A DNA stretch of 64,000 nt from an uncultured Candidatus Saccharimonadales bacterium (GTDB taxonomy: Bacteria; Patescibacteriota; Saccharimonadia; UBA4664). Below, in pieces: positions 23,120 to 52,140 of this stretch (position 1 is the first letter of the stretch; every line of letters begins with the position of its first letter). The position numbers were made by a program, and so were the translations under genes. The notes beneath the pieces were generated by a model. That model was not told where the DNA came from, searched no databases, and was given only the letters and a program-made list of their open reading frames with translations. The stretch covers positions 27,327 through 91,326 of the forward strand of contig CAYXSN010000002.1 in the NCBI GenBank assembly GCA_964467655.1, written 5' to 3'.

Positions 23120-23263
23120 TGACCACAGAGGAACAGCTGCGACGATGCTTACCGATGCACGAGATTCTCTGCCCAATTTTTCGCGGCAAGGAGTGTGATT
23201 GTGGCCGGGAGCAATTACGGGCGAACATTTTGAAGCTGATTAAGGACGTGAGAAAAGAAGAAC

Positions 23264-24738: not shown

Positions 24739-24747
24739 GAGTCCATC

Positions 24748-24945: not shown

Positions 24946-25099
24946 CCGCTCCCCGGCGGCTTCGGACGGCTGTAACCCCCTTATGGCTGTCCGAAGCTGC
25001 TTAGGCAGCAACCCCCTCCTTACACGCATGGGTTTACGGTCCCCATGCGTTCTATCCCGGCCGGAAGCGGTCGGGGCGCAATTATTAGAGAAATATCAA

Positions 25100-25900: not shown

Positions 25901-26583
25901 TGCCAACCGATACCTTCACAGCTTCCGGCTCATGGGTTTGCCCGGCTAGCGTCGTAAGCGTTGATGTTGAGTGCTGGGGCGCAGGAGGTGGCGGCGGCGG
26001 AGCTTTATACGATGGCATTAACGGCCACGGCGGTGGTGGAGGTGGCGGTGGCGCTTATAGCAAGAAAACCCAAATCGCCGTCACTCCCGGCAGTTCGTAT
26101 ACCGTAACAGTCGGCACCGGCGGTTCTGCTGGCGCCAGTGGCGGTGGCTCTGGAACCGCTGGCGGTGATTCGTCATTTATAAACTCATCGACCGTCATGG
26201 CTAAAGGCGGATCGCCGGGTGGCACCAGCGGCAAAGGTACGGGCGGCGCTGCCGCTTCAGGTGTTGGAAGCATCAAGTTCTCTGGTGGTGATGGTGGTAA
26301 CGGCCAGCCAAACGCAGCGGGCATTGGCGGCGGGGGAGGCGGCGGAGCCGGAACAACGGCCGCAGGCGGCAATGGCTCCAGCGCAACGGCCGGAACCGGA
26401 GGCAGCGTCGGCGGCGGGAATGGTGGTACTGGCGGCTCATCAACGGGTTCGGCGGGCAATACAATCGGCGGTGGCGCGTCAGGTGGTGGAGCTAGTGGCG
26501 GCAACTCTGCCGGTGGTGTCGGCGCTCGTGGTGAGGTTCGGATATCGTACATTCGCGTGTCGTCACTCGTCGGCCTGTTTTAG
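25900..26583 (+). CDS. glycine-rich domain protein (phage tail-fibre associated)
   Basis: N-terminus FTASGSWVCPASVVSVDVECWGAGGGGGG is the signature start of the glycine-rich-domain family seen in phage fibres; long GGxGG tracts. Confidence 0.55.
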   Translation: MPTDTFTASGSWVCPASVVSVDVECWGAGGGGGGALYDGINGHGGGGGGGGAYSKKTQIAVTPGSSYTVTVGTGGSAGASGGGSGTAGGDSSFINSSTVMAKGGSPGGTSGKGTGGAAASGVGSIKFSGGDGGNGQPNAAGIGGGGGGGAGTTAAGGNGSSATAGTGGSVGGGNGGTGGSSTGSAGNTIGGGASGGGASGGNSAGGVGARGEVRISYIRVSSLVGLF

Positions 26584-26831
26584 TCGCAAAATCATCTTGC
26601 TTAACGCCCAAAACCTTACGGAACTGGGCGTTTTTGCGTTTGGCTGAAAATAAAGGCTTGGCAGCGCTAACGTCGCAAGCCATATAATGTGCGACTGATT
26701 GCGTCGAATACTGCACTTTTTCGCTTCACGAGGTCATAAAGTTGCAATGAGAGTTACTTTTATGTTATAAACTTATTTCACGCAATCCCGCGTGAGAAGT
26801 ACCTCACATCTCGACCAGGACGGATCTATTC

Positions 26832-27479
26832 ATGCCGCGCGACCACGAGCTTGACCGGCTCCGCACCGAAATGAACGGTGCATGGGATGCCATGAAGTAC
26901 GCCGAGCAGCAGATGAACGATGCATGGGAGGAGCTTCAGCGGCTTCAAGACCGCTACGGCCCCCAGATCGACAGTCTCAAGGCAGAACACCAGCGGTTGT
27001 ACGACCGCACCCAAGACCTGTCACGAGACATCGACAGCGCGTTCAACTACGGCAACCGCGACGAAGGCTTCCGCCTCATCGAAGAGGTCAAGGAAGTCCG
27101 TGCGGAGATGGCCGACCTGCCTCCTCAGTGGCGGAGCATGATCGACGAGATCAACCCCGCCAGAGAGCGCTGGTCGTACGCCCGCGACATCTACAAGGAC
27201 AAGAAGCACGAGCATCGCCTCGCAAAGGAGCGATTCGACGACCGTAAGGCCGAACTCGAAGGCGCTCGGCGCGATTCCGCCATCCGTGCCGGTGTTCCGG
27301 CGCACTACGGCGACGAGGTGAAGGTCGTGAACGAGCCTGGCGGCAACACCAGCGTCTACTTCGGAGGCGTTGGCAAGCCGGACGGCCCCGGCCATGCCCA
27401 CTACGTTGTCGACCAGTTCGGCAATCTGACCTGGCGGCGTGAGCCGTTCGAGGATCGCGGGCCGCACAACGCTCGCTGA
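26832..27479 (+). CDS. hypothetical protein (high-GC moron)
   Basis: 215 aa; coiled-coil N-terminus; C-terminus VYFGGVGKPDGPGHAHYVVDQFGNLTW. GC well above the rest of the element. Confidence 0.4.
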   Translation: MPRDHELDRLRTEMNGAWDAMKYAEQQMNDAWEELQRLQDRYGPQIDSLKAEHQRLYDRTQDLSRDIDSAFNYGNRDEGFRLIEEVKEVRAEMADLPPQWRSMIDEINPARERWSYARDIYKDKKHEHRLAKERFDDRKAELEGARRDSAIRAGVPAHYGDEVKVVNEPGGNTSVYFGGVGKPDGPGHAHYVVDQFGNLTWRREPFEDRGPHNAR

Positions 27480-27554
27480 GTTCAACCTGTTCATGTTGCG
27501 GGGGCTGGCATTCGCTGGCCCTCGCAACGACACGGATTTATTATTAGAAGTATT

Positions 27555-27911
27555 ATGGCAACCAACCGACATCAGGCGAATCTACCTATCCGACCAGAGC
27601 TTCAGGGCATTTTAGACGCGCCTAAAGCAGACAAGCCGCGCTTGTTCTTTGAATACTGCCGTAAAGTGATCAAAGACAAAAATAGGGGCGAAATCACGCT
27701 TGAAGATGCTGGCTATCAAATTGCTGGTGCTATGTTCATTCATGAACTCGATGAGCCATTGTTCGAGGAAATTACCCTGCTTGCTGGTAGACTAGAGCTG
27801 CCGAGTCATGTACTGGGTACCGATCCCACTACCGAGTGGAAGCAACTTGTCGCCCTAGTTGAAGAGTACGGGGCAATGGTCAGATCAAACAAACCTGACA
27901 GCTCAAGCTGA
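27555..27911 (+). CDS. hypothetical protein
   Basis: 118 aa. Confidence 0.3.
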   Translation: MATNRHQANLPIRPELQGILDAPKADKPRLFFEYCRKVIKDKNRGEITLEDAGYQIAGAMFIHELDEPLFEEITLLAGRLELPSHVLGTDPTTEWKQLVALVEEYGAMVRSNKPDSSS

Positions 27912-27951
27912 CCGAAGCACCAGCCATCGTCGAGTCTCTCGGAGGTATAAA

Positions 27952-28329
27952 ATGCCGAGCAACACGCCCTTGTCTACCGAGACGATGACCGCCGGTCATC
28001 GTCTCTACCAAGTGCTGTATGGCCCAGTCAGCGAAGGGGTGAGGCTGACCATCGCTCAAGTTCAAGCGGAGATCGACCTGCTGACATCTCAGGAAATTCC
28101 GAGGCGTGACCTCATCCGTGCGGCAATGGCACAGGCCGACTATCGCTTCCGTGAGGCCTATGACGACGAGAGGTCGCAAACGGCCGAGGACGCCATTGCG
28201 GAGCCTGCGGGCCGGATGAATGCCAACGCCGATGTGGTGAGCCTACTTCAGGACACCCAAATCGAATACTGGAATGTCCAGGCCGCACAATGGGATGCCG
28301 AAGACGCACTTCGCGCGGCTTCCCTGTAG
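27952..28329 (+). CDS. hypothetical protein
   Basis: GGAGG RBS before the ATG at 27952; 125 aa. Confidence 0.3.
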   Translation: MPSNTPLSTETMTAGHRLYQVLYGPVSEGVRLTIAQVQAEIDLLTSQEIPRRDLIRAAMAQADYRFREAYDDERSQTAEDAIAEPAGRMNANADVVSLLQDTQIEYWNVQAAQWDAEDALRAASL

Positions 28330-28533
28330 TACCCGCCCCCGGTTGGCCACGTGCTTGACCGGGGGCAAGCCATATCTGGTTTTAATTACACCTGTGCGGA
28401 AATTATCCGTAATAGCCACGCTGCGCCAGCCGCTGAAGAAGTTTTGGAAATAACTCCACCACGGTGCCGCATCCCGCACATTGATAGCACCGGCGGCCTG
28501 TCACTACACGAGCTAGCTGGCCGGACGCATCGA

Positions 28534-29004
28534 TTAATCAATCGTAATCCCATGAGTGATAGTGAGCGTGTCGTTGCTAGTCTTGGTTCGAGAGATATTG
28601 AGCCTAGCGTACAACGTACCCGAGTCCACAACAGCATCTGCGCTATCGCCAAACAATCCGATTTCTCGCAGGACACCATTGGCTTCAGTCTGGTTGAAGA
28701 AGGTTTTGAATGAGGCCGTCTTGCCGGAGGAGCTACGAATAGAGACCTGTTTGCGGGCAATCTCGGTTTGAAGCTTTACGTCGCCCGCCGTTGGACTGGC
28801 TGAGCCAGTGCCGACCGCAGCAAAGGTAATAACGCCCCGACCGTTTTGTAGATTGCCGCGCAAGGCATCCGCAATAGCGGCCCTTCCGGAGTCCACGACC
28901 AAATTGCTGATCACATCGCGGCTTTTGAGTTTGCCGGTCAGCGCATCGTGAATTTCGACAATTACTTTGCCATAAACATTTACATGTTCGTTTGCGTGAG
29001 TCAT
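28534..29004 (-). CDS. phage tail component (downstream of tape-measure)
   Basis: 156 aa beta-rich protein immediately following the TMP gene, in a distal-tail-like position. Confidence 0.35.
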   Translation of the reverse strand: MTHANEHVNVYGKVIVEIHDALTGKLKSRDVISNLVVDSGRAAIADALRGNLQNGRGVITFAAVGTGSASPTAGDVKLQTEIARKQVSIRSSSGKTASFKTFFNQTEANGVLREIGLFGDSADAVVDSGTLYARLNISRTKTSNDTLTITHGITID

Positions 29005-29016
29005 TAGCGTATCCCC

Positions 29017-31173
29017 TTAGCGATTAATCCTGGTCTGGCCCATCAAGCGTCGGATGATCCCGTCACCGATCTGCTCGGCATATTTGTCCGCAACCAATGG
29101 GCTTGTGATGTTCGCGCCGTCTAGGTTGACGGTAACTTGTGTGCCGCCACCGCTACCAGCCGTGCTAACCCGGCCAGCCACCATCTTAGAAGTCTCGTAG
29201 GTGTTGTACACATTTGAGCCACTTGGCAACGAGATAAGCTCTGGCCCATGCTCACCGACCATAGCCAGACCTCCTGCGAAGCCACGAACACCCGATGCAA
29301 AGCCGGGGATATGCAGGTTGTGCAACAGGTTCGCATTTGGCAGGTTAAGTAATTTCGCACCATAATCCGCAATTTTGCCAATCAGACCGCTCCAGCTATT
29401 CGCGGAATCGTTCACCTTACGCTTAGATTCGTCGAGCTTGGCGTTCAGGTTGTTCTGAGCGTTGGCGACCTTGTCGGAAGAGTCCTTAACTTGGTTCTGA
29501 GCGTCTTTTACAGCGTTGTTGGCATCTTTTAGCCGGTTGTTGGCACCCTCGAGATTGTAGGCCGCCTGACGTGCTTCAAGGCTGGTAGGGCCATACTGAC
29601 GTACTGCTTCATTGTAGCTACGCTGAGCTTGTTCGACCGCCAGTGACGCACCCTGCTCGTCATATTGGGCATTCTTCAGCCTATCGCTGGCCTCTTTCGC
29701 CTCATCCATTGCGCGAGCTAAGTCACGCTTGGCATCAGCGGTCTGCTTGGCCTGCATTGCGTTGCTGAATAATGCCTGTGTCAGCGTACCAACCACGCCA
29801 ACTACCGGGTATGCGGCACCCAAGAATGTCACAACGCTCTTGCCCCACGTGTCCCAATGCTGGACTGCAAGCACCATGATCGCCACCAGCGCACCAATTG
29901 CCGCACCGATTGCCAATACCGGCCATGTCGCCGCAACAGTTGCCACTGCCGCAGGGATGGCAGCCGCCGCCCACGCGACGAAGGATGGTACGAGCGTTGA
30001 AAGAACGGCGGCGGCAAATGCACCGATTCCGGCTGCCAACGGGATAATGACCGCCTGTAAAACGTTCGCTTTATCGGCCATCAGTTTGATAATGGCACCC
30101 ACGGCGGCACCGGCGGCTATGAACGGGATGAGGGGAGCCAAAGCCGTCCAAACCGATACGCCTAGTGCTGCGAACGCGGGGACAAGACCACCGACTATTG
30201 CGCCGACGATGATGGGCGCGTTGTTCTTCATCCAGCCAAATGCCGCCATGATCTTTGGCTCCAGTTCGGAGAGCTTCTGGGTAATGACCGGGATCATTCG
30301 GCTCATCGAATCAAATAATCCACCCGGTTTGACGACTAAGCCAAGCTGCGGATCGACCTGAACGCCCAATAATCGACGGCCAAATTCCATCACGCTATCT
30401 TTTAGCGTACTTAGGCGGCCATTAAATGTCTCCGCCAGCTTAGTTGTACCTTGAAAGGCAAATTGACCGCTCTGGCCTGCTTTCTCGAACGCCTTATTGA
30501 ACACTTCAAGACTAATGCCTCCGCTTGCCCAGATGTCCTGTAGCTTGGAGGTGTCTACGCCGACGTTTTTAAGCATTTTGCCAATCGGCACCCCCATATC
30601 AATCAACTGGTTAAAGTTCTCGGCCTGCAAGCGTCCGGCACCAGTCACTTGGCCGAATACCACGGCTAGATTCTTCAACGGGCTTCCAGTGACGGCGGCG
30701 ATGTCGCCCAACTGTCGCATTTTGCCCATAACTAGATCTTCATTGATGCCGAATCCTAGTAGGTTTTTGCCAGCGGCTGCGATTTCCGGAAACTCAAAAG
30801 GCGTGTTATTAGCGTATGCAGCGAGCTGTCCGAATAATTTATTGGCTCGGTCGGTGTTGCCGATCAACACCTTGAACGAGTCGCTGGTCTGCTGCAGGTC
30901 GGCCGCACTCTTTACCGCAACGCCGCCCAGCGCTGCAGCCGAACCGACGACAACGGTTAAGATGCCTGCAAGCTTTTGGCTGCTATCGATTGCCGCCGCC
31001 ATGCTTTTCTGCATGTGAGCGGTTGCGCCCTCAACCTGATTCGCAAAATTCTGAACGGACGCTAGACCAGTTTTTAGTCCGTCTGTTTTTGCCACGAGCG
31101 AGACGATTATTGAACCTAAGTTGAACGCCATACTACACCTCCTGAAGCGGAGGAATTGAGCGCACAAACACAA
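29017..31173 (-). CDS. phage tail tape-measure protein
   Basis: About 700 aa. N-terminal TP901-type TMP core region. Central hydrophobic/Gly-Ala-rich segment. C-terminal coiled coil (NAVKDAQNQVKDSSDKVANAQNNLNAKLDESKRK). Likely true start is MAFNLGS at 31131. Confidence 0.8.
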   Translation of the reverse strand: MCLCAQFLRFRRCSMAFNLGSIIVSLVAKTDGLKTGLASVQNFANQVEGATAHMQKSMAAAIDSSQKLAGILTVVVGSAAALGGVAVKSAADLQQTSDSFKVLIGNTDRANKLFGQLAAYANNTPFEFPEIAAAGKNLLGFGINEDLVMGKMRQLGDIAAVTGSPLKNLAVVFGQVTGAGRLQAENFNQLIDMGVPIGKMLKNVGVDTSKLQDIWASGGISLEVFNKAFEKAGQSGQFAFQGTTKLAETFNGRLSTLKDSVMEFGRRLLGVQVDPQLGLVVKPGGLFDSMSRMIPVITQKLSELEPKIMAAFGWMKNNAPIIVGAIVGGLVPAFAALGVSVWTALAPLIPFIAAGAAVGAIIKLMADKANVLQAVIIPLAAGIGAFAAAVLSTLVPSFVAWAAAAIPAAVATVAATWPVLAIGAAIGALVAIMVLAVQHWDTWGKSVVTFLGAAYPVVGVVGTLTQALFSNAMQAKQTADAKRDLARAMDEAKEASDRLKNAQYDEQGASLAVEQAQRSYNEAVRQYGPTSLEARQAAYNLEGANNRLKDANNAVKDAQNQVKDSSDKVANAQNNLNAKLDESKRKVNDSANSWSGLIGKIADYGAKLLNLPNANLLHNLHIPGFASGVRGFAGGLAMVGEHGPELISLPSGSNVYNTYETSKMVAGRVSTAGSGGGTQVTVNLDGANITSPLVADKYAEQIGDGIIRRLMGQTRINR

Positions 31174-31253
31174 AGAAAGGCCTTGAGCGATGTGCGCTCA
31201 ATTCCTTCCAGATATATCTATTATACCGCTTTCGCTATCTGTTGGACAGGAGC

Positions 31254-31592
31254 TTAGTCAACCCGTTCGGCAGGGATGAGGTGGATCATGACCTCGCTCA
31301 CACGGTTTGTGAGAGTCGTATCGGCGTATATGGCGCTGCGGAATATCTCAAGGCCATCGTCAAGATCTAAACCTTGAGCTTCGGTGATAGTCATCCCCGT
31401 GACATTTGCAATCATTTCTGGCATCACCTCTAGGGCCGCCACGTATACATTGTTTAGGAAGCCCTCAAAGACCGTGCGGGTTGTCGGGTCGGAAAAGTCT
31501 GCGCGTTTTAGTTCACGATGAGGGTCGATCTTGGCCCCGGCCGAATGCAAGATCGTGGCTATCTCGGCTGCGTTAAATGGTCGTACTGTCAT
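31254..31592 (-). CDS. possible tail assembly chaperone
   Basis: 112 aa acidic protein immediately upstream of the TMP on the same strand. Confidence 0.3.
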   Translation of the reverse strand: MTVRPFNAAEIATILHSAGAKIDPHRELKRADFSDPTTRTVFEGFLNNVYVAALEVMPEMIANVTGMTITEAQGLDLDDGLEIFRSAIYADTTLTNRVSEVMIHLIPAERVD

Positions 31593-31676
31593 GCCATCCC
31601 CCTTGTTCTCTCAAACATACCCTGAAGTATGCCTCGCCATCTAGTGATTTCATCCATTAGAGTGTTCCAACTAATA

Positions 31677-31693
31677 CCCTGTAGCTCCACCAT
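31677..31693. repeat. attR core, CCCTGTAGCTCCACCAT
   Basis: Exact 17-bp copy of the tRNA-Ala(GGC) 3-prime end. Confidence 0.6.
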
Positions 31694-31909
31694 TTAGATA
31701 ATTCCTATACTAAGCCAAAAATAGCGCTCGTCTTATGAAAAAGATAGGCGCTATTTGCGAATTATGGCCCCGCAAAGGTAAAAAGCGCAGTTCGAATCCC
31801 TTTTGACCTACATCCGAAATTACATATTTAGGTTCATGGGAAATCGTAAGCCAGCCGTAGTAGGCTACGGCCAATCATCTGGACGGAGCACATCTGATAC
31901 AATTTACTT

Positions 31910-32875
31910 ATGACTGAATCTGAGCAATTCTCTCCCGATCATGCTAGATCCAATTTTGAATTATCGACGTCTGATATTCCACCTGAGGTGCATCCACAGG
32001 TGGAAGCTGTCGGCCCTAACCGTGATGTGACAGGTGGCCGAGAGGAAATGGCGCGGTCTTTTTTGACACAGATGAGGGAAAGTCGGGACGCGCTCGGGCA
32101 AATACCGGGTGAAATTGAAAAAACTCCTGAGCAAATTGCGGAAATCCTTCGTATTCACACTGCAGTCATCCAGCTTGGAGACGAACTAGGCGTAAACGTG
32201 CGAGACCGGCTTCCTGAAATAAGGCATTACCATCTCTTTGGCAGTCATGAGGCGTACGTACAAGGTGCGGGCATGGTTGGCAGTGAGCAGCCAACAGAGA
32301 CTGGTGGAATGTCCGATATATCGAGGGGCATATTTTGTGAGACAAGAGACGACCCCGTGCGCGATAGAACAGGCTTTGCGCACGAGATCACCCACTTTAT
32401 CGCTCGTGGCATCTTCTACCCCACAGTACACTACGATGAAGATGGTACTGGTCACCTGGGAGGCAATTACACACATGGCTTCAGCCCGCAGTCACATGCG
32501 CTAGAAGAGTGGACGAGTGACATCGGCATGCGAATAATTCTTAGGAGAGCTGGCTACGAGGACGGCGACTGGGGCGAAAGTTATCGTCCGCTAAACATGA
32601 TAGGGGACGCGCTGGTGGCTGAAACCGCGGCAGCCAACGCTGAAAGTATCGAGGCAGTAGAAAAACTATTGGTGCGAGGAAAGTTTACTGGCGATATGGA
32701 TGGGCCCCGATTAATGACCCGCGCGATTGGCCATGACCGGATGCAGCGATTTATGCAACTCCACGAGTGGTCCGATCCAGCTACTCTAGCCGAAGCCGCA
32801 ACCCAGATGTTACTGCCTGAGGTAGCCGAGAGGATTCGCACCATGTATCCCGATTCATCGTCGCACACGGAATAG
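31910..32875 (+). CDS. hypothetical protein with HExxH (FAHEITHF) zinc-metallopeptidase-like motif
   Basis: 321 aa. Single HEITH motif with a downstream Glu-rich region. Sits between attR and the third tRNA-like repeat. Confidence 0.35.
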   Translation: MTESEQFSPDHARSNFELSTSDIPPEVHPQVEAVGPNRDVTGGREEMARSFLTQMRESRDALGQIPGEIEKTPEQIAEILRIHTAVIQLGDELGVNVRDRLPEIRHYHLFGSHEAYVQGAGMVGSEQPTETGGMSDISRGIFCETRDDPVRDRTGFAHEITHFIARGIFYPTVHYDEDGTGHLGGNYTHGFSPQSHALEEWTSDIGMRIILRRAGYEDGDWGESYRPLNMIGDALVAETAAANAESIEAVEKLLVRGKFTGDMDGPRLMTRAIGHDRMQRFMQLHEWSDPATLAEAATQMLLPEVAERIRTMYPDSSSHTE

Positions 32876-32978
32876 ACCGGTAACGATAATATGGCCGGGG
32901 CAACCCGGCGGCACTAACGTTTGCGCATATATCGACGAAAGATGAATTAAAGAAACCCCTGCAATTTAACGAAATCTA

Positions 32979-33200
32979 TCATTTGCTGAGCCAACACTCA
33001 CGACTTCTCATTTTCTTGAAAATGGGAAGTAAACTAGCAACTCTGTTGCTAGTTATAAACGGGCTCTCGATTACGGCCTCATTCATGCAATTGTTTAGAT
33101 CTCGCATAAAGGCCTTATAAAACGTCCGCTCATCGTATAGTCGGGAGGTAAGCAAGTCTGACGAGCTTGTTTTGAAGCGATTGAAGAATCGGGGTATCAT
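32979..33200 (-). CDS. small hypothetical protein
   Basis: 73 aa, AT-rich context. Confidence 0.2.
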   Translation of the reverse strand: MIPRFFNRFKTSSSDLLTSRLYDERTFYKAFMRDLNNCMNEAVIESPFITSNRVASLLPIFKKMRSRECWLSK

Positions 33201-42785: not shown

Positions 42786-43133
42786 AGATATCAGTACAAA
42801 AAATGCCCGTTCTCGATTTGCGATGGATCGAGAACGGGCAGGGTGGGCTACACTTCATTGAGAGTGTGCCGCCGTGGGTCATGCCACGTTACTCCCGGCG
42901 CCGTCTGCGTCGGCCCATATAGCGCAGGTGGCCGAGCACGTCTCGGGCTGCCTCGGTATTACCGGCGTCCAAGGCTTTCCGCATATCCCTGAGGACCTCA
43001 TCGCCCTCCTGCTTGCCAAGGCCGGCTAGGCCAATCTCTTCATCGGTAGGCTCCGGCTCTGGCTTCCATCCGCGCATCGCACCACTGCCTTTCTTTGACT
43101 GGTTGGCTGAGGGTTCGTTGGTATAATGGGCTT

Positions 43134-43466
43134 ATGGCCACATCTCAGGACACAATCGATTTTCTGCTCGAACAGCTGGCGGAGCTGTCAGACCGTCTGA
43201 CTACCTGTCGGATGTTTGGCGAATATTGCCTGTATGTAGACGGCAAACCGACGGCATTCATTTGTGACGATCAGCTATTTTTGAAAATCACGACCGTCAG
43301 CCGCCAATATCTCGACGAGTCGTATAACGGTCAGGCCTACCCGGGTTCGAAGCCCTATCTGCGAATCACTCAAGATATATGGGAAGATCGGGATTGGCTG
43401 ACCAAAGTAGTAGCCGGTACTGCCGATAGCCTGCCCGCGCCAAAGCCCAAGCCGGGCCGGCGCTAG
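43134..43466 (+). CDS. TfoX/Sxy N-terminal-domain-like protein
   Basis: TIDFLLEQLAELSDRLTTCRMFGEYCLYVDGKPTAFICDDQLFLK matches the TfoX N-domain pattern. Confidence 0.4.
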   Translation: MATSQDTIDFLLEQLAELSDRLTTCRMFGEYCLYVDGKPTAFICDDQLFLKITTVSRQYLDESYNGQAYPGSKPYLRITQDIWEDRDWLTKVVAGTADSLPAPKPKPGRR

Positions 43467-43705
43467 TCCAACTTCCCCCACGACCATAGCCACCAGGCCA
43501 GGCCGACGAAACTGATGACGAGGCCCCATCCGCCGATAAAGAGTCCTACGACAAACAGGACCGGGCCTAGAAAGACGAGAGCCAAGCCGACGAGACCGAT
43601 CAGGAACTCATCAATATCCATGATGCTGTCCTCTCAAGGTACAGTGACACCGAAGCATCATTAAACCACAAACAAGTCAGATTGGCTAGATCGGCATCTA
43701 ATCAG

Positions 43706-43765
43706 CCTCAACTATGAACAAATATGATCCTCACGCCCTCGAACCCAAACGGCAGCAAGTTTGGG
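43706..43765 (+). repeat. copy A of leuS promoter-proximal / 5-prime coding segment
   Basis: About 90% identical over 60 bp to 46474..46533. Encodes MNKYDPHALEPK..., a truncated LeuS N-terminus ending after 35 codons. Confidence 0.6.
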
Positions 43766-43813
43766 TTAGCTCAGTTTTGACGACCATCTATCCTTCGTCT
43801 AGACTGGAAGAAC

Positions 43814-44134
43814 ATGAGTGAAATGACCTCGCCGCCAGACTTTCGAGAACAAGAGATTGGTTCTTCGGATTTGGTTGTGCCAGGCAATCCTGAGCGGCCA
43901 TTAAATATATCTGAACCGCGTACACTTGAGGATGTTCCCCCGCCAGATGGTTTTATAGTCACCGATTCTGGCTTGGTTGCACCCAAACCGCCATCAACCA
44001 ATGAATCGCCAGAAGATCCGCCAAAACACCTCATCTTACCAGGCGCATCGGATGTGAGGCGGGTCACTGGCACGGTAGAGGCAGAGCCGACTTACGATGC
44101 GGCATATCTGTGGCTTGTCCACTTGCAGGTTTGA
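43814..44134 (+). CDS. hypothetical protein (possibly 5-prime part of a frameshifted gene with 44110..45636)
   Basis: 106 aa, Pro-rich; overlaps the next ORF in another frame. Confidence 0.25.
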   Translation: MSEMTSPPDFREQEIGSSDLVVPGNPERPLNISEPRTLEDVPPPDGFIVTDSGLVAPKPPSTNESPEDPPKHLILPGASDVRRVTGTVEAEPTYDAAYLWLVHLQV

Positions 44135-45636
44135 ACCGTTCGGTTGCCCATGCAAGTTTGGATCATCTCAGGGCAACCTTCGGAGATTTGCATCGCTATA
44201 CTGAAAACGACCCCGAATCGCGCGATGCAGTACTTGAGACCGTAAGGAGTATTTGCTCACCCGAAGAAACGCAAGCACTTCTGGCAGAATTCCATAAATT
44301 GACTGAGACTCTATCTGAGACGTTACCCGACAAAGCTATAGACGATGCGACGTTGTGGTCGTCACTAACCCTCATAGCAGACACAATTAGTATCAACCAA
44401 GATATGGCCGATATACCGCAGACAGAAGGATTACATCAGCTTTGCTTACGCGCTCTTAGTCACGAAGCCCCGTCTACTCAGGTTCTAGATTTTATATCTC
44501 GTTGCGAAATTACGAATGAGTTAGCCGACGCCTTGCTCGACAGAATAGATATCCATCCGAGTCATCCTCTTTACTGGATAGTGGCCGATAAGCGACCTGC
44601 CCATCCCAGGGTTCAGCGCCAGCGAGAGATGGTTCTACGGCTACAAGATCAAGACTCGTTCAGGCCAACCATGGATGACATCTATGAGTTTGGAAAACTT
44701 GTCCCACTGGGAAGCCTAATGAGCAGGCAATGGCCCCGATCTGGCTTAGAGATTGAGACAACGGTTTTTGGTGGGCCGGCAAAAGTACCCGATGGAGCCG
44801 TTATGGGTACAGATGTAGCTCGTCATGGAAATATCCTAGAACTACGCCTCGACCATGGAGGGCATCCCGAAGTGCTCACCTATGACGCAGCATGGCGGCG
44901 GAGGTATTTTGAGATCTGGCGTTGGGGGCGTGTCTCGAGGAGCGTGAATACTTCGATTCACTTGCATTCTGAAGGTGTTCTCAAGATAGGAAACGCCCAA
45001 GTGATGTTTGGCAGCGACACTGATGATTGCCGAATCAATAATCATGGGACAATCGAAGTACGAACTGTCCTCGAGGGCTACAAAGGCGGACAGGGCTATC
45101 CGGAGCTTCCTTCACCAATACTATTGGAGTTGCTACATAGCCTTGATATGTCTGACCCGGTGCTGCCACGCATCGCCGAGATGTACCTAAAAACAGGCGT
45201 GTATGGAAGCCGACTCAGTAGATCTACCAACGAGCTTGTTACCGCTCGTGACGGCTTAGCGTATTTACTGGAACGCGGCAGTGAGCACGAGCTTGAGACT
45301 TTGGCATATAATCTGGCAACGATCCCAGCCGAACATCAAGCCGAGGTGATAACTGTGATACTGAAACGCGGCAGTGATTCCGGACTCGAGGCGCTGGCTC
45401 GCAATCTGGCAACGATCCCAGCCGAGCATCAAACAAGGGTGATAACTGCGTTGTTGGAAAGAGACAACTCGCGTGGACTTGAGGTGCTGGCTCGCAATCT
45501 GGCAACGATCCCAGCCGAACATCAAGCCAGGGTAGTAGCCGCAGTATCGGAACGGGGATGTATTGTACCTGAATTATACAATTCTTCTAGGCGTTCACTA
45601 ACTATCGGAGCTAGCTCCAAAAATGGCGTTGCATGA
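44110..45636 (+). CDS. hypothetical protein with three C-terminal 31-aa HEAT-like tandem repeats
   Basis: Repeats LE.LA.NLATIPAEHQ..VI. encoded by three 93-bp tandem DNA repeats. Confidence 0.4.
   Translation: MACPLAGLNRSVAHASLDHLRATFGDLHRYTENDPESRDAVLETVRSICSPEETQALLAEFHKLTETLSETLPDKAIDDATLWSSLTLIADTISINQDMADIPQTEGLHQLCLRALSHEAPSTQVLDFISRCEITNELADALLDRIDIHPSHPLYWIVADKRPAHPRVQRQREMVLRLQDQDSFRPTMDDIYEFGKLVPLGSLMSRQWPRSGLEIETTVFGGPAKVPDGAVMGTDVARHGNILELRLDHGGHPEVLTYDAAWRRRYFEIWRWGRVSRSVNTSIHLHSEGVLKIGNAQVMFGSDTDDCRINNHGTIEVRTVLEGYKGGQGYPELPSPILLELLHSLDMSDPVLPRIAEMYLKTGVYGSRLSRSTNELVTARDGLAYLLERGSEHELETLAYNLATIPAEHQAEVITVILKRGSDSGLEALARNLATIPAEHQTRVITALLERDNSRGLEVLARNLATIPAEHQARVVAAVSERGCIVPELYNSSRRSLTIGASSKNGVA
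45271..45549 (+). repeat. 3 x 93-bp tandem repeat inside the 44110..45636 CDS
   Basis: Units beginning gaacgcggcagtga / aaacgcggcagtga / gaaagagacaactc all share ctggctcgcaatctggcaacgatcccagccga.catcaa. Confidence 0.6.
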
Positions 45637-45777
45637 AATCATTCATCCCTCATTTGTCTACATAAACAACTTCGCTTATGGACGTGTCAGTTAGGCGACC
45701 TGTCTCCAAGATCTAGCCAATCCTCGATATGTTTTTCTACTCTAGCCCTATATCTGATAGCGGGTTATAATTGAGGC

Positions 45778-45816
45778 CAACTATGAACAAATATGATCCT
45801 CACGCCCTCGAGGCCG
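45778..45816 (+). repeat. copy B of leuS promoter-proximal / 5-prime coding segment
   Basis: ccaactatgaacaaatatgatcctcacgccctcgagg preceded by a TATAAT box, as at leuS. Encodes a 29-codon MNKYDPHALE... peptide. Confidence 0.6.
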
Positions 45817-45825
45817 AGACGATCA

Positions 45826-46389
45826 TTAATCCTCGGCAGTATCTCCATGCGGCTGCATATCGTGGGCGGTAAGAACCTGATCGAGAATCCGCCTTCCGCC
45901 AGCAGTTGGTGGCCGTACGCCCATCTGGACGCTGTGAGGGTCATAACCACTAGTCCAGGGTATAATAATGGCCTCAACGCGATCATTCGTTGTGCCAAGC
46001 GGCGAGACCCAGGGCTCACCAATAGTCACATCAAACAGGGGACTAGCCAATTGCTCCGGAGTGAGGAGGCCGCTTCTCTGCTGTACTAAATCAGCAATCG
46101 CTTCAGAATCAAATACAATCTGACCAGGATGACCAGAAGCATCGCTTCTTTCTGTCTGTATCACGACTGATCCTATCTCATGGGCTAAAGGATCAGCTAT
46201 AGCGCGCGCTAGCGCCTCCATCGACGCAGTCCCGGATCTAAATATGCGTTCAACCTGACCATCGGGATATTGACGTAGCTCCTCTTGACCAAGCGGTGGA
46301 CTCAGTCGATTAAGATCTGTACGATCAGGGTCTACAATCTCAACTGGTGGTCGATTGTTATCTGGTTGATACTGCTCTATGTAGCTCAT
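45826..46389 (-). CDS. hypothetical protein
   Basis: 187 aa; no motif. Confidence 0.35.
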   Translation of the reverse strand: MSYIEQYQPDNNRPPVEIVDPDRTDLNRLSPPLGQEELRQYPDGQVERIFRSGTASMEALARAIADPLAHEIGSVVIQTERSDASGHPGQIVFDSEAIADLVQQRSGLLTPEQLASPLFDVTIGEPWVSPLGTTNDRVEAIIIPWTSGYDPHSVQMGVRPPTAGGRRILDQVLTAHDMQPHGDTAED

Positions 46390-46481
46390 GCGAATAGTTT
46401 ACCACATGTCTACAGCTATAAACTACGAGTCTACACTGTGCTAGCCCACTATCTCATATGGCGCTATAATACAGCTCAACT

Positions 46482-49400
46482 ATGAACAAATACGATCCTC
46501 ACGCCCTCGAGCCTAAATGGCAGCAAGTTTGGGCCGACACCAACCTGTACGCCGCCACCGATGACGACCACACCCGCCAAAAATACTACTACCTAGTGGA
46601 GTTTCCGTACCCCAGCGGCGACGGTCTGCATGTCGGCCACGTCCTTAGCTACACGGCGCTCGACATCATGGCCCGCCACAAGCGCATGCAAGGCTACAAC
46701 GTGCTCTACCCCATGGGCTTCGACGAATTTGGCTTGCCCACCGAAAACTATGCCATCAAACACAAAATTGCCCCCCAGGTTGCCACGCAAGCAAATGTGG
46801 CCAACTTCCGCCGCCAACTAAAGTCACTTGGCCTAAGCTTCGACTGGAACCGCGAAGTGCGCACTTCCGACCCCAACTATTACAAGTGGACGCAGTGGAT
46901 CTTCCTCAAGCTGCTCGAAAAAGGCCTAGCTTATCAGGCCGAGCTGCCCATCAACTGGTGCCCGTTCTGTAAAACTGGCCTGGCGAATGAAGAAGTGGTT
47001 GACGGCAAGCACGAGCGCTGTGGCACCCCAGTCGAAAAGAAGCTGCTCACCCAGTGGATGCTTAAAATTACCGCCTACGCCGACCGCCTGGCCGAAGACC
47101 TCAAAACCGTCGATTACCTCGACAGGATCGCTACCCAGCAGATCAACTGGATCGGGCGAAGCGAAGGGGCGGAGATTGACTTTACGCTAGCCGATCACGA
47201 TTACGACGTGGCCGACAGCCTGAAGTTCACGCCTGAGCTGACCAAACTAGTACAGGCTGGCACCAAGACTAACACCATCCGGCTTGAGCCCAAGAATCTC
47301 AAGGTTGGCGATTATACCCGCCTCATCACCCGCTATGATGCTGATCGCACACAAAGCTTTGCCATCGCCAAGATCACCAAGGTTGAAAAGCACGCGTTAT
47401 CTGATATTCCCGTTGATTTGGGTGGTCACGAGCCGTTCGCCAACAAGGCCGAGCAACTTGCCAGCTACCGCAAATACTACGGCGACGCCGTTACCGCCGA
47501 AACTGAATTCACCATTTATTACTTTGAAACTGTTGCCAATACCGTTACCGTCTACACCACCCGCCCCGATACCATCTTTGGCGCTACCTTCCTGGTGGTG
47601 TCGCCCGAAGTGGCCAAAACCTGGATCGACAGCGGTTGGAAAGCCCCCAAACCGGCCGCCGAGTACATCGATGCCGCTCTCAAGGCCAGCGAGCTGTCGC
47701 GCCAGGAAGAGTCAAAAGTCAAAACCGGTGTCGATACCGGCATCACAGCCATCCATCCACTGACCGGCAATCCAGTGCCCGTCTGGGTGGCCGATTACGT
47801 CCTAGGCTCCTATGGCACCGGCGCCATCATGGCCGTGCCCGCCCACGACGAACGCGATTACGAGTTTGCCAAGGCCTTTGATTTACCTGTCACATATGTA
47901 GTTGAGCCTCGTACGGGCACCGGCCCCGATGCGCCTGTACAGCGGCCCAGCATCGTTGCCGTACTACTTGATCAATCTGGTGAACGGGTAGTAAGTATGG
48001 ACCACCACGGACGCCATGATAATTGGGGCGGCCATTTACTCATTGGCGGTGGCATAGACCAGGGTGAACAGCCAATTGACACGGCCCGTCGCGAAATAAT
48101 CGAAGAAACCGGCTACACTGATTTTGAGCTGGTCGAACAAGCTCCATTTCAGATCCATCATCAGTATTTCTCGGCTGAGAAGAAGATCAATCGGCTGGCG
48201 GTTACAACCGGTTTTCTCTTCAAGCTTACCAGTGACCAAAGAGCTGAGCTAAAGCTGACAGACAGCGAAAAACGCAATAGCGTTGAACCGGTCTGGCTGC
48301 CCATTACCGATGCTTTAACGAGCGTAAAAGACGAAATGCATTCGTTGTGGCTACGCTTTTTCACACAAGGCACAAGCTTTGCTGCCAACGGCCCCCTCAT
48401 CAACTCCGGCGAGTTCAACGGCTTGTCTGGCACCGAGGCCAAGCGCGCCATCATCAAGGCATTGTTCGACAAAGGCGCTGGCCGCGGCGCCACCAAATAC
48501 CGCCTGCGCGACTGGATCTTTAGCCGCCAGCACTACTGGGGTGAGCCGATCCCGGTGGTGCATTGCCCCAAAGACGGCGTCGTACCCGTACCCGTCGACC
48601 AACTACCCATCGAGCTGCCCAAAGTCGACCACTACGAGCCGACAGACACCGGCGAGTCGCCGCTGGCCGCCATCACCGACTGGGTGAACACCACGTGCCC
48701 CAAGTGTGGTGGGCCCGCCAAGCGCGAAACCGACACCATGCCCAACTGGGCCGGTTCAAGTTGGTACTTCTTGCGCTACACCGACCCGCACAACGCCAAA
48801 GAGTTTGCGAGTGCCGAAAACCTCAAGTACTGGACCCCTGTCGACCTCTACAACGGCGGCATGGAGCACACCACGCTCCACTTGCTCTACAGCCGCTTCT
48901 GGCACAAATTCCTCTACGACGAAGGCCTCGTGCCCACATCAGAGCCCTACGCCCGGCGCCGCAGTCACGGCATGATACTCGGACCCGACGGCCAAAAGAT
49001 GAGCAAATCCAAGGGCAACGTGATTAATCCAGACAGCGTGGTAGCGCAGTACGGCGCCGACACCATCAGGCTCTACGAAATGTTTATGGGCCCGTTTGAT
49101 GAGGTCAAAGCCTGGAGCGAAGACCATCTCAATGGTGTATCGCGCTTCATGTACCGGGTCTGGACCTGGCTGGACGACCTCACCGACGACGCCGAAACTC
49201 TTGCCGGATCAGTCGGCTACGAAAACGACCTTGGCGCCTTTACCGTGGCCACCGACAGGATCGTCCACAAAACGCTCAAGAAAGTGCACCACGACATCGA
49301 AGACATGCATTTCAACACCGCCGTGTCGGCCATGATGGAGCTGGTCAATTATCTAACGAGCGCCGACGTCAAACGCAAACTCCGCCAGGCCAATGCCGCC

Positions 49401-49748
49401 GACCTCAGGGCGCGCACGGTCCGCACCCTCGTGCTCATGCTGGCGCCCTTCGTGCCGCATCTGGCCGAAGAAATCTGGCACGAGCGACTGGGCCAAGAGG
49501 GGAGTGTCCACCGAGCACCATGGCCCAAATATGATCCAGAACTCATCAAAGACAACATTGTTACGGTAATCGTGCAGATCAATGGTAAATTGCGCGGTGA
49601 GCTGGTGGTGGCAGCCGATGCCACCGAGGACGACGTCAAGCAAGCCGCCCAAACCGATCCCAATGTGGCGCAGCACCTCGAAGGCAAAACCATTAGCAAG
49701 ACCATTGTGGTGCCCCGTAAGATCGTCAACTTTGTGGTGAAGCCCTAG
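46482..49748 (+). CDS. leuS: leucine--tRNA ligase with inserted ASCH/PUA-like and NUDIX domains
   Basis: Class-I HIGH (PYPSGDGLHVGHV) and KMSKS motifs; CP1 editing domain (TRPDTIFGATF, AHDERDYEFA); anticodon-binding C-terminus. 1088 aa versus the usual roughly 800-860. TATAAT 13 nt upstream. Confidence 0.9.
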   Translation: MNKYDPHALEPKWQQVWADTNLYAATDDDHTRQKYYYLVEFPYPSGDGLHVGHVLSYTALDIMARHKRMQGYNVLYPMGFDEFGLPTENYAIKHKIAPQVATQANVANFRRQLKSLGLSFDWNREVRTSDPNYYKWTQWIFLKLLEKGLAYQAELPINWCPFCKTGLANEEVVDGKHERCGTPVEKKLLTQWMLKITAYADRLAEDLKTVDYLDRIATQQINWIGRSEGAEIDFTLADHDYDVADSLKFTPELTKLVQAGTKTNTIRLEPKNLKVGDYTRLITRYDADRTQSFAIAKITKVEKHALSDIPVDLGGHEPFANKAEQLASYRKYYGDAVTAETEFTIYYFETVANTVTVYTTRPDTIFGATFLVVSPEVAKTWIDSGWKAPKPAAEYIDAALKASELSRQEESKVKTGVDTGITAIHPLTGNPVPVWVADYVLGSYGTGAIMAVPAHDERDYEFAKAFDLPVTYVVEPRTGTGPDAPVQRPSIVAVLLDQSGERVVSMDHHGRHDNWGGHLLIGGGIDQGEQPIDTARREIIEETGYTDFELVEQAPFQIHHQYFSAEKKINRLAVTTGFLFKLTSDQRAELKLTDSEKRNSVEPVWLPITDALTSVKDEMHSLWLRFFTQGTSFAANGPLINSGEFNGLSGTEAKRAIIKALFDKGAGRGATKYRLRDWIFSRQHYWGEPIPVVHCPKDGVVPVPVDQLPIELPKVDHYEPTDTGESPLAAITDWVNTTCPKCGGPAKRETDTMPNWAGSSWYFLRYTDPHNAKEFASAENLKYWTPVDLYNGGMEHTTLHLLYSRFWHKFLYDEGLVPTSEPYARRRSHGMILGPDGQKMSKSKGNVINPDSVVAQYGADTIRLYEMFMGPFDEVKAWSEDHLNGVSRFMYRVWTWLDDLTDDAETLAGSVGYENDLGAFTVATDRIVHKTLKKVHHDIEDMHFNTAVSAMMELVNYLTSADVKRKLRQANAADLRARTVRTLVLMLAPFVPHLAEEIWHERLGQEGSVHRAPWPKYDPELIKDNIVTVIVQINGKLRGELVVAADATEDDVKQAAQTDPNVAQHLEGKTISKTIVVPRKIVNFVVKP

Positions 49749-49753
49749 CTAAC

Positions 49754-50353
49754 ATGACGCGCCACGAAACACCAGATCCCCGAGAAGTTGATGGATTCGA
49801 AGCCGCCCAAAAACAAGGCCTCCTGCCATTAGTTTCGGACACAGCACCCACGCTAGAAATCCAGCCTCCAGCCGGTGCCATGCTAGATACTCACATTATT
49901 TCATCAGTAATTGGTTTTTTTGCTTGCGTCGTCGGTATCTTACTGATTGATAAATTTCTAAAACCACCTGACATCGTTTTTATAGGTCAGGTGGTGATTA
50001 CAGGCTCATTGATGTTCTGGTATTGGCTATGGAAAACAGCCAAAATCGGCGAAGTGGCCGTCAGTGAATTCAGTCGAGGCTATACCACTATTCAGAGATT
50101 AGTATTCGGTAACTTTTGGCTTGGATCATCCCGGACATCATGGTGGAATGATGATCGGATAGGATGGGACTTTACCGGTTTGTGGCGACTTGATCCCAAG
50201 AGTGGAGCTGTAATAGCAGCACCCAACAGAACTGTAACACCTCCCGGATTCTATCCATCACCATTCAAATCGGGCAAGTTTCAGCAATGGACAGGCAGTG
50301 AGTGGATATCAGTGTACCGTGACGCCAATAAAAAAATGGGAGAGTCCTTCTAG
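49754..50353 (+). CDS. membrane protein with C-terminal DUF2510-like motif
   Basis: Two TM helices; C-terminal PPGFYPSPFKSGKFQQWTGSEW resembles the GWYPDP...RWWDG..WT motif. Confidence 0.35.
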   Translation: MTRHETPDPREVDGFEAAQKQGLLPLVSDTAPTLEIQPPAGAMLDTHIISSVIGFFACVVGILLIDKFLKPPDIVFIGQVVITGSLMFWYWLWKTAKIGEVAVSEFSRGYTTIQRLVFGNFWLGSSRTSWWNDDRIGWDFTGLWRLDPKSGAVIAAPNRTVTPPGFYPSPFKSGKFQQWTGSEWISVYRDANKKMGESF

Positions 50354-50400
50354 CCTGCCGGGCGATTGAACCACACAAAGTCACTCTCGATCTTACGGTA

Positions 50401-50949
50401 GTGATCGGCTATTATAGCGATACATGCGGCGAGAGTGTCAGCGTCAAACTTCACTTACGACAAGCGGCAGCATATTCATTTCGAGTAGCCGTGGCCGGAA
50501 TCCCTGGAGATAACTGGCTTAGCTTAGCCCTACTGGTGGGGCGCGCTGCCAACTGGTGCGACGACATGCGCATCGTCTTCGACCCGCAGATAGTGAGTGA
50601 AGTGCTGCGTGCGCGCGGTTTTCTGCCCCTTCAACCGGGCGAAACCATGCCAGAAGAAGGCTACCTCGAGAAGCTAGCCTATGTAATTCGTTTTGCAGCT
50701 CATGGCGGTGAATGCGGCTACCTGCATCCCGACACCGGCATGACCGTCGCATCCATCGCTCAAGATCACAGAGTACAGCCACTTGTCGGACGATTCTATC
50801 AGGATGGTGAACTCAATCCGGGGTCGAATGATGTAGTGCTGAACTTGTTATTTGTGCAAACTGCGCAGGTGGAAGACGCCCAGCGCAATGAGGAGTGCCA
50901 TTACGGCAGCTGCCCCAAAGAACACATACATAGCGTACTGAGCGATTAG
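50401..50949 (+). CDS. hypothetical protein
   Basis: 182 aa; its 3-prime 100 nt overlap the convergent ORF 50848..51402, so one of the two may be shorter or spurious. Confidence 0.3.
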   Translation: MIGYYSDTCGESVSVKLHLRQAAAYSFRVAVAGIPGDNWLSLALLVGRAANWCDDMRIVFDPQIVSEVLRARGFLPLQPGETMPEEGYLEKLAYVIRFAAHGGECGYLHPDTGMTVASIAQDHRVQPLVGRFYQDGELNPGSNDVVLNLLFVQTAQVEDAQRNEECHYGSCPKEHIHSVLSD

Positions 50950-51402
50950 GCCAAAGCGCGAAAAGGCATAGGCAGTAAGCAAGCTCGACCTGAGCATATC
51001 ACCCTGGAATAAGGTGGTTTTCTGGCCAGCCAGCTTCTGGTCGGTCGGGTTGGCCCGGGACAGCTCACTCACTTCGGAATAAGTTTTACCGTCGGCGATC
51101 TTCATCATGTGCACCCAAATGAATTCATCGGCATAGGCTTTGGCCTTATCGCCGTTATCCACTTGCTGGCCGGCATATTTTTGGAGGCCAGGGAACTCTT
51201 TGGGGTCAAGCGCAGCGCTCCCGGCTGGCGGGAAGAACACCTTTTCCTGGACAAGCTGACTCTTAATCTGGTCATCGGCAAACCGGTTAGCCCATTGCGC
51301 CAGAAAGCCACCACCGGTAAGGGCGACAAACACAATGACGCCGAGTCCTATTAATACCTTATCAAGCTGTTTACGACTGCTTTGCTTCACGTTGCGTTCC
51401 AA
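50848..51402 (-). CDS. hypothetical membrane protein (N- and C-terminal TM helices)
   Basis: 184 aa; TM helices at both ends. Confidence 0.4.
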   Translation of the reverse strand: MERNVKQSSRKQLDKVLIGLGVIVFVALTGGGFLAQWANRFADDQIKSQLVQEKVFFPPAGSAALDPKEFPGLQKYAGQQVDNGDKAKAYADEFIWVHMMKIADGKTYSEVSELSRANPTDQKLAGQKTTLFQGDMLRSSLLTAYAFSRFGLIAQYAMYVFFGAAAVMALLIALGVFHLRSLHK

Positions 51403-51456
51403 TTTTTATATACCTATTTCATAGCATAAGCAGTATAAAATAGCTATCATACTACT

Positions 51457-52140
51457 ATGCCTATTGGCCACGACGACCCCTTTATCGATTATTATCATGT
51501 ATTAGGTGTGCCTCCGGCAGCCTCAGGCGAGGAGGTCAAACAGGCTTATCGCCAAGCCGCCAAAAAAGCCCATCCAGATGCGGGCGGCAGCTCGGCAGCC
51601 ATGGATAGCCTCAACCAGGCCTATGCCGTACTGGGTGATCCAGCCAAGCGGGCGATATTTGATCAAGAGCGCCAGCTTCATGATGCCCCGCCGCCGGTCC
51701 AGCCATCTGCGTCTGCTGCCGCATCTTCGCCGGTCCAATCCGACGCTCAGCTCCACGCCGCCCGCCAGGAATTGCGTCGCCTCAGGGTGGCCTACGCCCG
51801 CCATTCAGGCCTGGAAATCATTCGGTGGTCGCTGGTAGCCGGCGCCGGCCTGGGAGCCCTGATGTGGCTGTTTGGCGGCTTGATTACCGGTGGTGTTGTC
51901 CGGGCAATACTCTTGGTGGGCTTGGGCGGCAGTGGCTTTGGCCTGGTCTTTGGCATCACCTGTCTGACGGATCCCGATCACCGTTTGGTATTGTTCGACC
52001 TGTCTTGGCGGCACCGTCAATTTCCGGACAGGCAGTGGTGGCTCATCACGGCAGCCCAGTTTGTGACAGGAGTTTTACTTGGCGCTGGTCTTGGCTGGTG
52101 GCTATTGTCTCAGGCTCCTTCCAGTCTTTTTGGAGCTTGA
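51457..52140 (+). CDS. DnaJ (J-domain) membrane protein
   Basis: J domain DYYHVLGV...AYRQAAKKAHPD with HPD tripeptide; Ala/Pro linker; C-terminal TM helices. Confidence 0.65.
   Translation: MPIGHDDPFIDYYHVLGVPPAASGEEVKQAYRQAAKKAHPDAGGSSAAMDSLNQAYAVLGDPAKRAIFDQERQLHDAPPPVQPSASAAASSPVQSDAQLHAARQELRRLRVAYARHSGLEIIRWSLVAGAGLGALMWLFGGLITGGVVRAILLVGLGGSGFGLVFGITCLTDPDHRLVLFDLSWRHRQFPDRQWWLITAAQFVTGVLLGAGLGWWLLSQAPSSLFGA

Follow-up and report, generated by a model that had tools for sequence, protein, structure and literature searches.

Three direct copies of the leuS promoter and start bracket two small, foreign-looking segments in a Saccharimonadales genome

In staphylococci, composite islands of the staphylococcal cassette chromosome (SCC) at the 3' end of rlmH (orfX) show three direct repeats and two serial cargo segments; some SCC segments carry no recombinase genes and have the enzymes supplied in trans, and recombination relies on Ccr serine recombinases acting at a short core. 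Prochlorococcus tycheposons likewise form tandem cargo islands beside a conserved gene, with partial gene copies between the units and no integrase in some of them; they target tRNA genes and make up a defined element family with known recombinases. More generally, elements that integrate into coding genes usually keep their target whole because attP brings along a piece of the gene, tandem arrays grow as further elements integrate at the restored core, and a lower size limit of 2 kb and at least one integrase gene are applied when integrative elements are called (PMC7192596). Decayed arrays are also described in which the elements have no integrase but retain attL and attR, and such elements are termed cis-mobilizable elements (CIMEs) (PMC5704250). 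Here we describe a locus in a 64,000-nucleotide (nt) stretch of the genome of an uncultured Candidatus Saccharimonadales bacterium (contig CAYXSN010000002.1, positions 27,327 to 91,326 of the forward strand; hereafter the window, numbered from its first letter), in which three direct repeats (copies A, B and C), each made of the leuS promoter region and its first codons, enclose two stretches of foreign-looking cargo DNA (cassettes 1 and 2). Our preferred explanation, which we hold with moderate confidence, is that two small foreign segments entered by Campbell-type recombination at the leuS start and now form a tandem array that is fixed and decaying, with a site-specific integrase, since lost or acting in trans, as the likeliest catalyst.

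Three copies of the leuS start and an empty site in a sister species

The three direct copies, first noticed in a reading of the sequence alone, are defined by a 34-nt core, CAACTATGAACAAATATGATCCTCACGCCCTCGA, that spans the leuS start codon; it was matched by none of 100 dinucleotide-preserving shuffles and is the sole dispersed repeat within the 64-kb window, two tRNA-Ala genes excepted. Both truncated open reading frames (ORFs) that the same reading had placed at copies A and B are present. The arrangement is as follows.

43684-43765, plus strand: copy A, leuS promoter and codons 1-17, an attL-like joint by sequence comparison (CTAG box 43684-43689, TCTAAT 43697-43702, ATG at 43714)
43709-43742, plus strand: core of copy A, exact
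43714-43821, plus strand: truncated LeuS-like ORF of 35 codons in copy A, its stop overlapping the cassette-1 ATG (ATGAGTGA)
43766-45741, plus strand: cassette 1, 1976 bp, with one gene at 43814-45636
45742-45812, plus strand: copy B, a chimera with an intact promoter, ATG and 10 leuS codons (CTAGCC 45742-45747, TATAAT 45766-45771, ATG at 45783)
45778-45811, plus strand: core of copy B, exact and identical to that of copy A
45783-45872, plus strand: truncated LeuS-like ORF of 29 codons in copy B, antisense to the 3' end of the 187-amino-acid (aa) gene of cassette 2
45813-46440, minus strand: cassette 2, 628 bp, almost wholly one 187-aa ORFan gene at 45826-46389
46441-46533, plus strand: copy C, leuS promoter and codons 1-17, an attR-like joint by sequence comparison (CTAGCC 46441-46446, TATAAT 46465-46470, ATG at 46482)
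46477-46510, plus strand: core of copy C, one mismatch
46482-49748, plus strand: intact leuS gene (1088 aa), its product carrying ASCH and NUDIX insert domains (Pfam; homologues)

Similarity extends beyond the core by different amounts in the two pairings with copy C. Copies A and C agree at 55 of 59 positions (43707-43765 versus 46475-46533, -7 to +52 relative to the ATG), and copies B and C are 83% identical between 45742-45812 and 46441-46511 (-41 to +30), so that the repeats measure 59-71 nt and are diverged. The left edge of the B/C similarity is the CTAGCC box, 18 nt upstream of TATAAT. This box also opens the leuS expression module, CTAGCC-18-TATAAT-11-ATGAACAAATA, in which the whole signal lies within about 45 nt. 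The sequence-only reading had assigned a TATAAT box and a ribosome-binding region to the repeat; the box is there in copies B and C and replaced by TCTAAT in copy A, and no Shine-Dalgarno sequence could be found, the distance from TATAAT to the ATG being only 11 nt (ACAGCTCAACT). Because of this short spacing, leuS appears leaderless or nearly so. Comparison of the leuS promoter in the window (46441-46484), in a sister species (L083, 9960-10003) and in a more distant relative (L084, about 5340-5377) showed the same layout of 10-11 nt between the -10 box and the ATG in all three lineages, with CTAGCC in the window and L083, not in L084.

The sister species provides the uninterrupted form of the locus. 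The best matches of the LeuS encoded in the window are metagenome-assembled genomes of Saccharimonadia, and the closest relative found is CP064960 (GCA_016699105.1), whose LeuS is locally 88% identical in aa sequence, with 45% of the query aligned. The genes there follow the order murF, dut, alkD, a 62-aa ORF, a TfoX gene, a 52-aa ORF, leuS and dnaJ, with a single leuS promoter and start 261 bp after the TfoX gene, and three further contigs of the sister species agree with this arrangement. Two genes of the left flank in the window correspond to it:

43134-43466, plus strand: gene with a TfoX_N domain (Pfam PF04993), the conserved left flank, syntenic with the sister species
43463-43621, minus strand: hydrophobic ORF of 52 aa, beyond which no conserved gene precedes the site, called at the same position in the sister species, where its C-terminal 16 aa are matched (tblastn)

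In BLAST alignments the sister sequence is continuous with the window up to 43755, through copy A, and again from 46441, at copy C; a sister stretch of about 83 nt (L083, 9960-10042) is aligned twice, to copies A and C, and copy B matches sister bases 9956-10017 at 89%. Since the sister species lacks the approximately 2.7 kb between copies A and C, this DNA is an insertion relative to it, and the proposed comparison of empty and filled sites in relatives thus finds the empty allele in CP064960 and the three contigs. The inserted DNA has 47-52% GC versus 53-60% in the flanks. The absence of a tRNA gene at the integration site was also borne out. In two more distant relatives (L100 and L084) the DNA immediately upstream of leuS holds other lineage-specific ORFans and no repeats, and for this reason the site can be regarded as variable in several lineages.

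The three copies differ in ways that bear on their origin. Copy A is colinear with the sister-species intergenic region up to +42, and its promoter spacer has lost 11 nt, leaving 7 nt instead of 18 between the CTAG box and the -10 box; given this 7-nt spacer and the TCTAAT box, its promoter must be considered broken. Judged by this comparison, copy A is the stranded native leuS promoter and start, now decayed, and such decay is expected under relaxed selection once copy C drove leuS. Copy C has the intact promoter and is predicted to drive leuS. Within the coding part, three of the four differences between copies A and C are synonymous (TAT/TAC, GAA/GAG, CCC/CCT), which hints that both arms come from working leuS alleles.

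Copy B combines two affinities. Upstream of the start codon (-45 to -1) it agrees with the sister species at 39 of 45 positions versus 31 of 45 with copy C, and downstream (+1 to +31) it agrees with copies A and C at 29 of 31 positions versus 23 of 31 with the sister species. Copies A and B do not differ at all between -5 and +29. The copy B spacer between TATAAT and the ATG, TGAGGCCAACT, is identical to that of the sister species, and the distant relative L084 shares the TGAGGCCAAC stretch of it; derived bases at -7 and -6 are common to copies A and C and absent from copy B. All three copies carry the lineage-specific codons for DPHALE (CCTCACGCCCTC), where the sister species has DPKAIE. Copy B is thus a chimera of a sister-like promoter half and a resident-like coding half, and the stretch CAACTATGAACAAATA, identical in all four sequences, sits where the chimera junction maps. 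Because copy B is chimeric, the repeats are better read as recombinant joints between the resident leuS start and an incoming leuS-like segment than as copies made on the spot, and the earlier proposal that each event duplicated its target does not fit these affinities.

The arrangement was recovered independently of the assembly that yielded the window. Contigs from at least 12 other samples reproduce it at 99.9-100% identity, all three copies lie inside four contigs of three assemblies (ERZ27248706, ERZ27248701 and ERZ27309394), and both outer junctions are reproduced by the low-coverage contigs L081 and L082 (ERZ724513 and ERZ724505). Logan contigs end at 43738 or start at 45782, the positions at which a k=31 graph is bound to be interrupted by an exact repeat of 34 nt. 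Runs in which the organism occurs include SRR20074300-302, SRR6747781-82, SRR14234036/050/078, SRR21798915 and SRR30654310, and the 109-kb contig k141_171448 of ERZ27309394 continues for about 55 kb past the window.

Several further observations concern leuS itself and its right flank. The ASCH and NUDIX domains of LeuS (residues 247-349 and 488-612) flank the CP1 editing domain (Pfam), and NUDIX, ASCH or alpha/beta-hydrolase inserts occur in many LeuS homologues of Saccharimonadia and Patescibacteria, one of which reaches 1616 aa; a literature search on LeuS, Nudix and Patescibacteria gave no match. In the complete sister genome (L083, 10001-12948) LeuS is annotated as two ORFs of 733 and 249 aa, and metagenome contigs of the same species encode it as one 1150-aa protein, the split probably being a frameshift or a sequencing error in the assembly. 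A second insertion relative to the sister species, of low GC, lies between the leuS stop and dnaJ (49750-51479) and contains three ORFan ORFs (199, 182 and 184 aa); no flanking repeats were found around it. With this second insertion, lineage-specific DNA stands on both sides of leuS.

The genes of the two cassettes

Cassette 1 holds a single gene. It had been read as two ORFs (43814-44134 and 44110-45636), which prove to belong together, the loss of 1 nt at 44117/44118 having broken the frame, since a 51%-identical homologue (P0122) reads continuously across the break ('LWLDPVAGLNR'). The frameshift is found in every contig covering the position, and the gene is a pseudogene. Matches to the other homologues begin near residue 75-90. 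Two internal features were noted, the second of them, like the 187-aa gene on the minus strand of cassette 2, already seen in the sequence-only reading:

43777-43805, plus strand: promoter-like site TTGACG-17-TAGACT, ending 8 nt before the ATG
45266-45544, plus strand: three 93-nt tandem repeats within the cassette-1 gene

The cassette-1 family is rare, with 28 cluster representatives among 1.84 billion; cassette 1 is absent from the sister species. Neither cassette's ORFs gave anything above threshold against Pfam, PADLOC and PHROGs, and a profile of the cassette-1 family had no match among PDB sequences or in Pfam. A confident AlphaFold2 (AF2) model of the cassette-1 protein (pLDDT, the predicted local distance difference test, of 86) comprises a helical N-terminal part, a central alpha/beta domain carrying the invariant residues E216, E244, H284, H286 and E316, and three C-terminal helical-hairpin repeats; family motifs between residues of about 205 and 335 read GLELE, ILELRLD, SIHxHSEG, FGxDxDDCR and GTxEVRT. 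Foldseek comparison of the model with the PDB returned generic HEAT/ARM repeat matches only, and the top 25 matches in BFVD include four phage 'amidoligase' proteins at non-significant E-values of 0.6-1.1. The motif pattern recalls glutamine synthetase (GS)-like amidoligases, a resemblance that we put forward as a guess backed only by these non-significant BFVD matches.

Homologues of the cassette-1 gene occur in other settings. A 743-aa homologue lies in a ribosomal-protein/fusA region (L101, 1607-3838; L102, 2606-4837), between an uncharacterised partial gene and rpsL-rpsG and without flanking repeats. Another, 51% identical, is found in L085 (8789-12803), where at least eight copies of the 93-nt repeat continue into two further ORFs. 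This homologue adjoins a frameshifted IS481-like transposase gene and lies between an intact GNAT acetyltransferase gene and a 41-codon GNAT remnant, in which N-terminal codons are fused to the last 31 codons and the differences are mostly synonymous. The duplicated GNAT flank in L085 is ambiguous and could reflect either a related mechanism or an old tandem pair of paralogues.

The 187-aa protein of cassette 2 has itself as its only database match and is known only from this organism; its AF2 model (pLDDT 38) is unusable.

Routes to the present arrangement

That the crossover was reciprocal, how many events took place and in which sequence, and what kind of enzyme acted are inferences from the arrangement described above. 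Each incoming molecule would have carried its own leuS module, consisting of the -35-like CTAGCC, an 18-nt spacer, TATAAT, 11 nt, the ATG and the first 10-17 codons. A crossover within this module around the start codon would have placed the cargo before leuS, leaving a surrogate promoter and start (copy C) to drive the essential gene and stranding the original promoter and start upstream (copy A). Copy B could then stem from a further event at one of the joints so formed, or else the array may have been imported ready-made. The repeat and the promoter share their left edge (CTAGCC), as would be needed if the incoming segment kept an essential, apparently leaderless leuS expressed. A tyrosine-type integrase, since lost or acting from elsewhere in the genome, would be the likeliest catalyst, and the two segments would then be integrase-less remnants comparable to CIMEs.

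A number of results weigh against this proposal. No integrase or transposase was detected in either cassette (Pfam, PADLOC, PHROGs), and a Pfam scan of the window, covering its roughly 56 largest non-overlapping ORFs, revealed a prophage serine recombinase as the sole recombinase and no transposase; the site-specific integration system proposed from the sequence alone thus stays hypothetical. Inverted repeats are absent from all four cassette boundaries, and the core has no obvious inverted binding sites. Neither the core (as exact and shortened patterns), nor a leuS-like attP, nor the cassette proteins were found in viral contigs; in metagenome contigs the core pattern occurred only in two short contigs of the same organism. 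Similarly, none of 88 other leuS loci showed the leuS-start repeat (80 among the matches listed in a GTDB search with the LeuS N-terminus, three of them from Patescibacteria, and 8 further relatives), so that the search for a second instance yielded none. Cassette-1 homologues also occur at other places that have no repeats of this kind, one being upstream of rpsL in L101 and L102. Within the species, exact look-ups with the TfoX and 187-aa proteins in at least 12 samples gave no empty, excised or rearranged allele, all contigs being filled or broken at the repeat and k=31 contigs being unable to resolve recombinants across the 34-nt core. Finally, the segments, at 0.63 and 1.98 kb with one gene each, fall under the 2-kb lower limit for integrative elements (PMC7192596). 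An Rfam search of 43000-47000 had no match, and literature searches on leuS as an attB yielded nothing relevant.

The prophage enzyme was considered as the agent:

17320-18921, minus strand: large serine recombinase, 533 aa (PHROG integrase, E 3e-40), in a prophage about 25 kb away

Large serine recombinases need only a 2-bp crossover and leave no long repeats, and this candidate was rejected because its class leaves no long direct repeats. The probable prophage extends over about 17300-33000 and also encodes an Ltp-like lipoprotein (20003-20632) and a tape-measure protein (29017-31173); a tRNA-Ala(GGC) gene (17309-17384) is overlapped by the 3' end of the serine recombinase gene.

The same Campbell-type geometry could have been produced by host homologous recombination with DNA from a related Saccharimonadia strain in which a leuS start fragment lay beside foreign genes, a route we consider rather unlikely, though it is the leading rival. 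Saccharibacteria are naturally competent (PMC10187176, PMC10633639), the promoter half of copy B resembles a related lineage (39 of 45 positions shared with the sister species), as donor DNA of a relative would, no integrase is present, and CAACTATGAACAAATA coincides with the mapped chimera junction. Nor does the L085 homologue between diverged copies of a GNAT gene point to a leuS-specific enzyme, although these copies may simply be an old pair of tandem paralogues. However, the shared segments are only about 70-100 nt long, with perfect identity over at most 34 nt, which is short for a RecA-dependent crossover. Moreover, transformation brings linear single strands, which would lead to replacement and not to integration with duplication; the latter would call for a donor that is circular and double-stranded, of which no example is known here. 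With untargeted DNA, two independent events at one 100-nt segment would also be unlikely.

Duplication of the leuS 5' segment on the spot, either as a long target-site duplication or by replication template switching, with later divergence, would explain why all three copies have the DPHALE codons where the sister species has DPKAIE, and why there is no difference between copies A and B across 34 nt. We nevertheless judge it improbable: the copy B promoter is nearer to the sister species and to the more distant relative that shares its spacer stretch than it is to copies A or C, which a copying of B from either would not predict, target duplications of 70-100 nt lie far beyond the range of transposases, and there are no terminal inverted repeats.

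A broader idea, which we regard as equally doubtful, is that the locus exemplifies a cassette-type mode of gene acquisition in Saccharimonadia, in which single genes are captured serially at the leaderless promoter and start module of an essential gene. Catalysis may then fall to a recombinase whose gene lies elsewhere, or to the machinery of competence and recombination, and the module of ~50-100 nt may act both as attachment site and as portable promoter, an integron-like function resting on the start of a housekeeping gene.

It is also conceivable, if very unlikely, that the copies were retained as working promoter and start modules, with the ORF of copy A coupled to cassette 1 through the overlap of its stop with the next ATG, and with the intact CTAGCC-18-TATAAT promoter of copy B facing the 3' end of the 187-aa gene as an antisense unit. 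The copy A promoter is broken, however, the gene it would serve is frameshifted, and cassette 1 has its own promoter-like site; retention would in any case account at most for the keeping of the copies, not for their origin. Assembly artefact or chance similarity, for which nothing was found in favour, carries a negligible probability in view of the shuffles and of the independent contigs, the latter ruling out the artefact that the sequence-only reading had named as a possible refutation.

The leuS locus among known integration systems

Gene gain by the small, streamlined genomes of the candidate phyla radiation (CPR)/Patescibacteria is little understood, and this locus offers a clean comparison of a filled with an empty site. 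New here are the use of the leuS promoter and first codons as a target, the group to which the host belongs, and units that are very small and hold one gene each. The locus illustrates how foreign genes enter the 5' end of an essential gene while its promoter and start are replaced, and also the aftermath, in which the native promoter is dead and the cargo gene frameshifted. Should a dedicated recombinase exist, its attachment site would be useful for engineering Saccharibacteria; should host recombination have acted, the locus would show what competence does in nature. Its scope is one fixed, apparently inactive locus in one species.

Integron arrays resemble the locus in having single-gene cassettes at one site with a recurring recombination-site-like sequence between them. 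In contrast to them, the locus has no adjoining intI, attI or Pc, its upstream neighbours being the TfoX gene and the 52-aa ORF; its repeat is a copy of a host gene start and not an attC-type imperfect palindrome, no attC-type inverted repeats being present; and its cassettes lie in opposite orientations. Transposons and insertion sequences are likewise a poor fit, as there is no transposase, there are no terminal inverted repeats and the repeats are 59-71 nt long and diverged. The locus is neither an integron nor a transposon.

The stacking of units with partial gene copies between them is shared with the tycheposons, which differ in their tRNA target and known recombinases. The closest parallels to the overall layout are three. 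Like the arrays called by TIGER/Islander (PMC7192596), the insertion is absent from a related genome, here the sister species with its uninterrupted attB; it is bounded by direct repeats, each including part of the target gene (copies A, B and C), the gene itself being preserved (leuS, 1088 aa), and a further internal repeat separates two units. Unlike them, its units have no integrase and measure 1976 and 628 bp (1.98 and 0.63 kb), where one integrase per unit and 2-200 kb are expected; the locus is not classed as an integrative element, because the defining integrase was not found. Its target is the leuS 5' end including the promoter, and leuS does not figure in the available parts of the main text and supplements of that study (PMC7192596).

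With CIMEs, and with accretion at the fda locus of Streptococcus thermophilus (PMC5704250), the locus shares tandem units without integrase genes, flanking repeats that are placed like attL and attR and may be attachment sites, and a position at one gene end. It differs from them in its Saccharimonadia (CPR) host, in a repeat that comprises a whole promoter and start and not a 3' gene end, and in that no excision was seen and no functional parent with the same attachment site is known, none having emerged from the viral and metagenome searches, with coverage of Saccharimonadia genomes limited. CIMEs are thought to originate by decay of integrated elements followed by new integration (PMC5704250), and the same course is proposed here.

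Set against composite SCC islands, the locus is without a recombinase and occupies a 5' end with its promoter. Taken together, these analogies suggest that the leuS locus works like a decayed tandem island array, of a CIME-like or composite-SCC-like kind.

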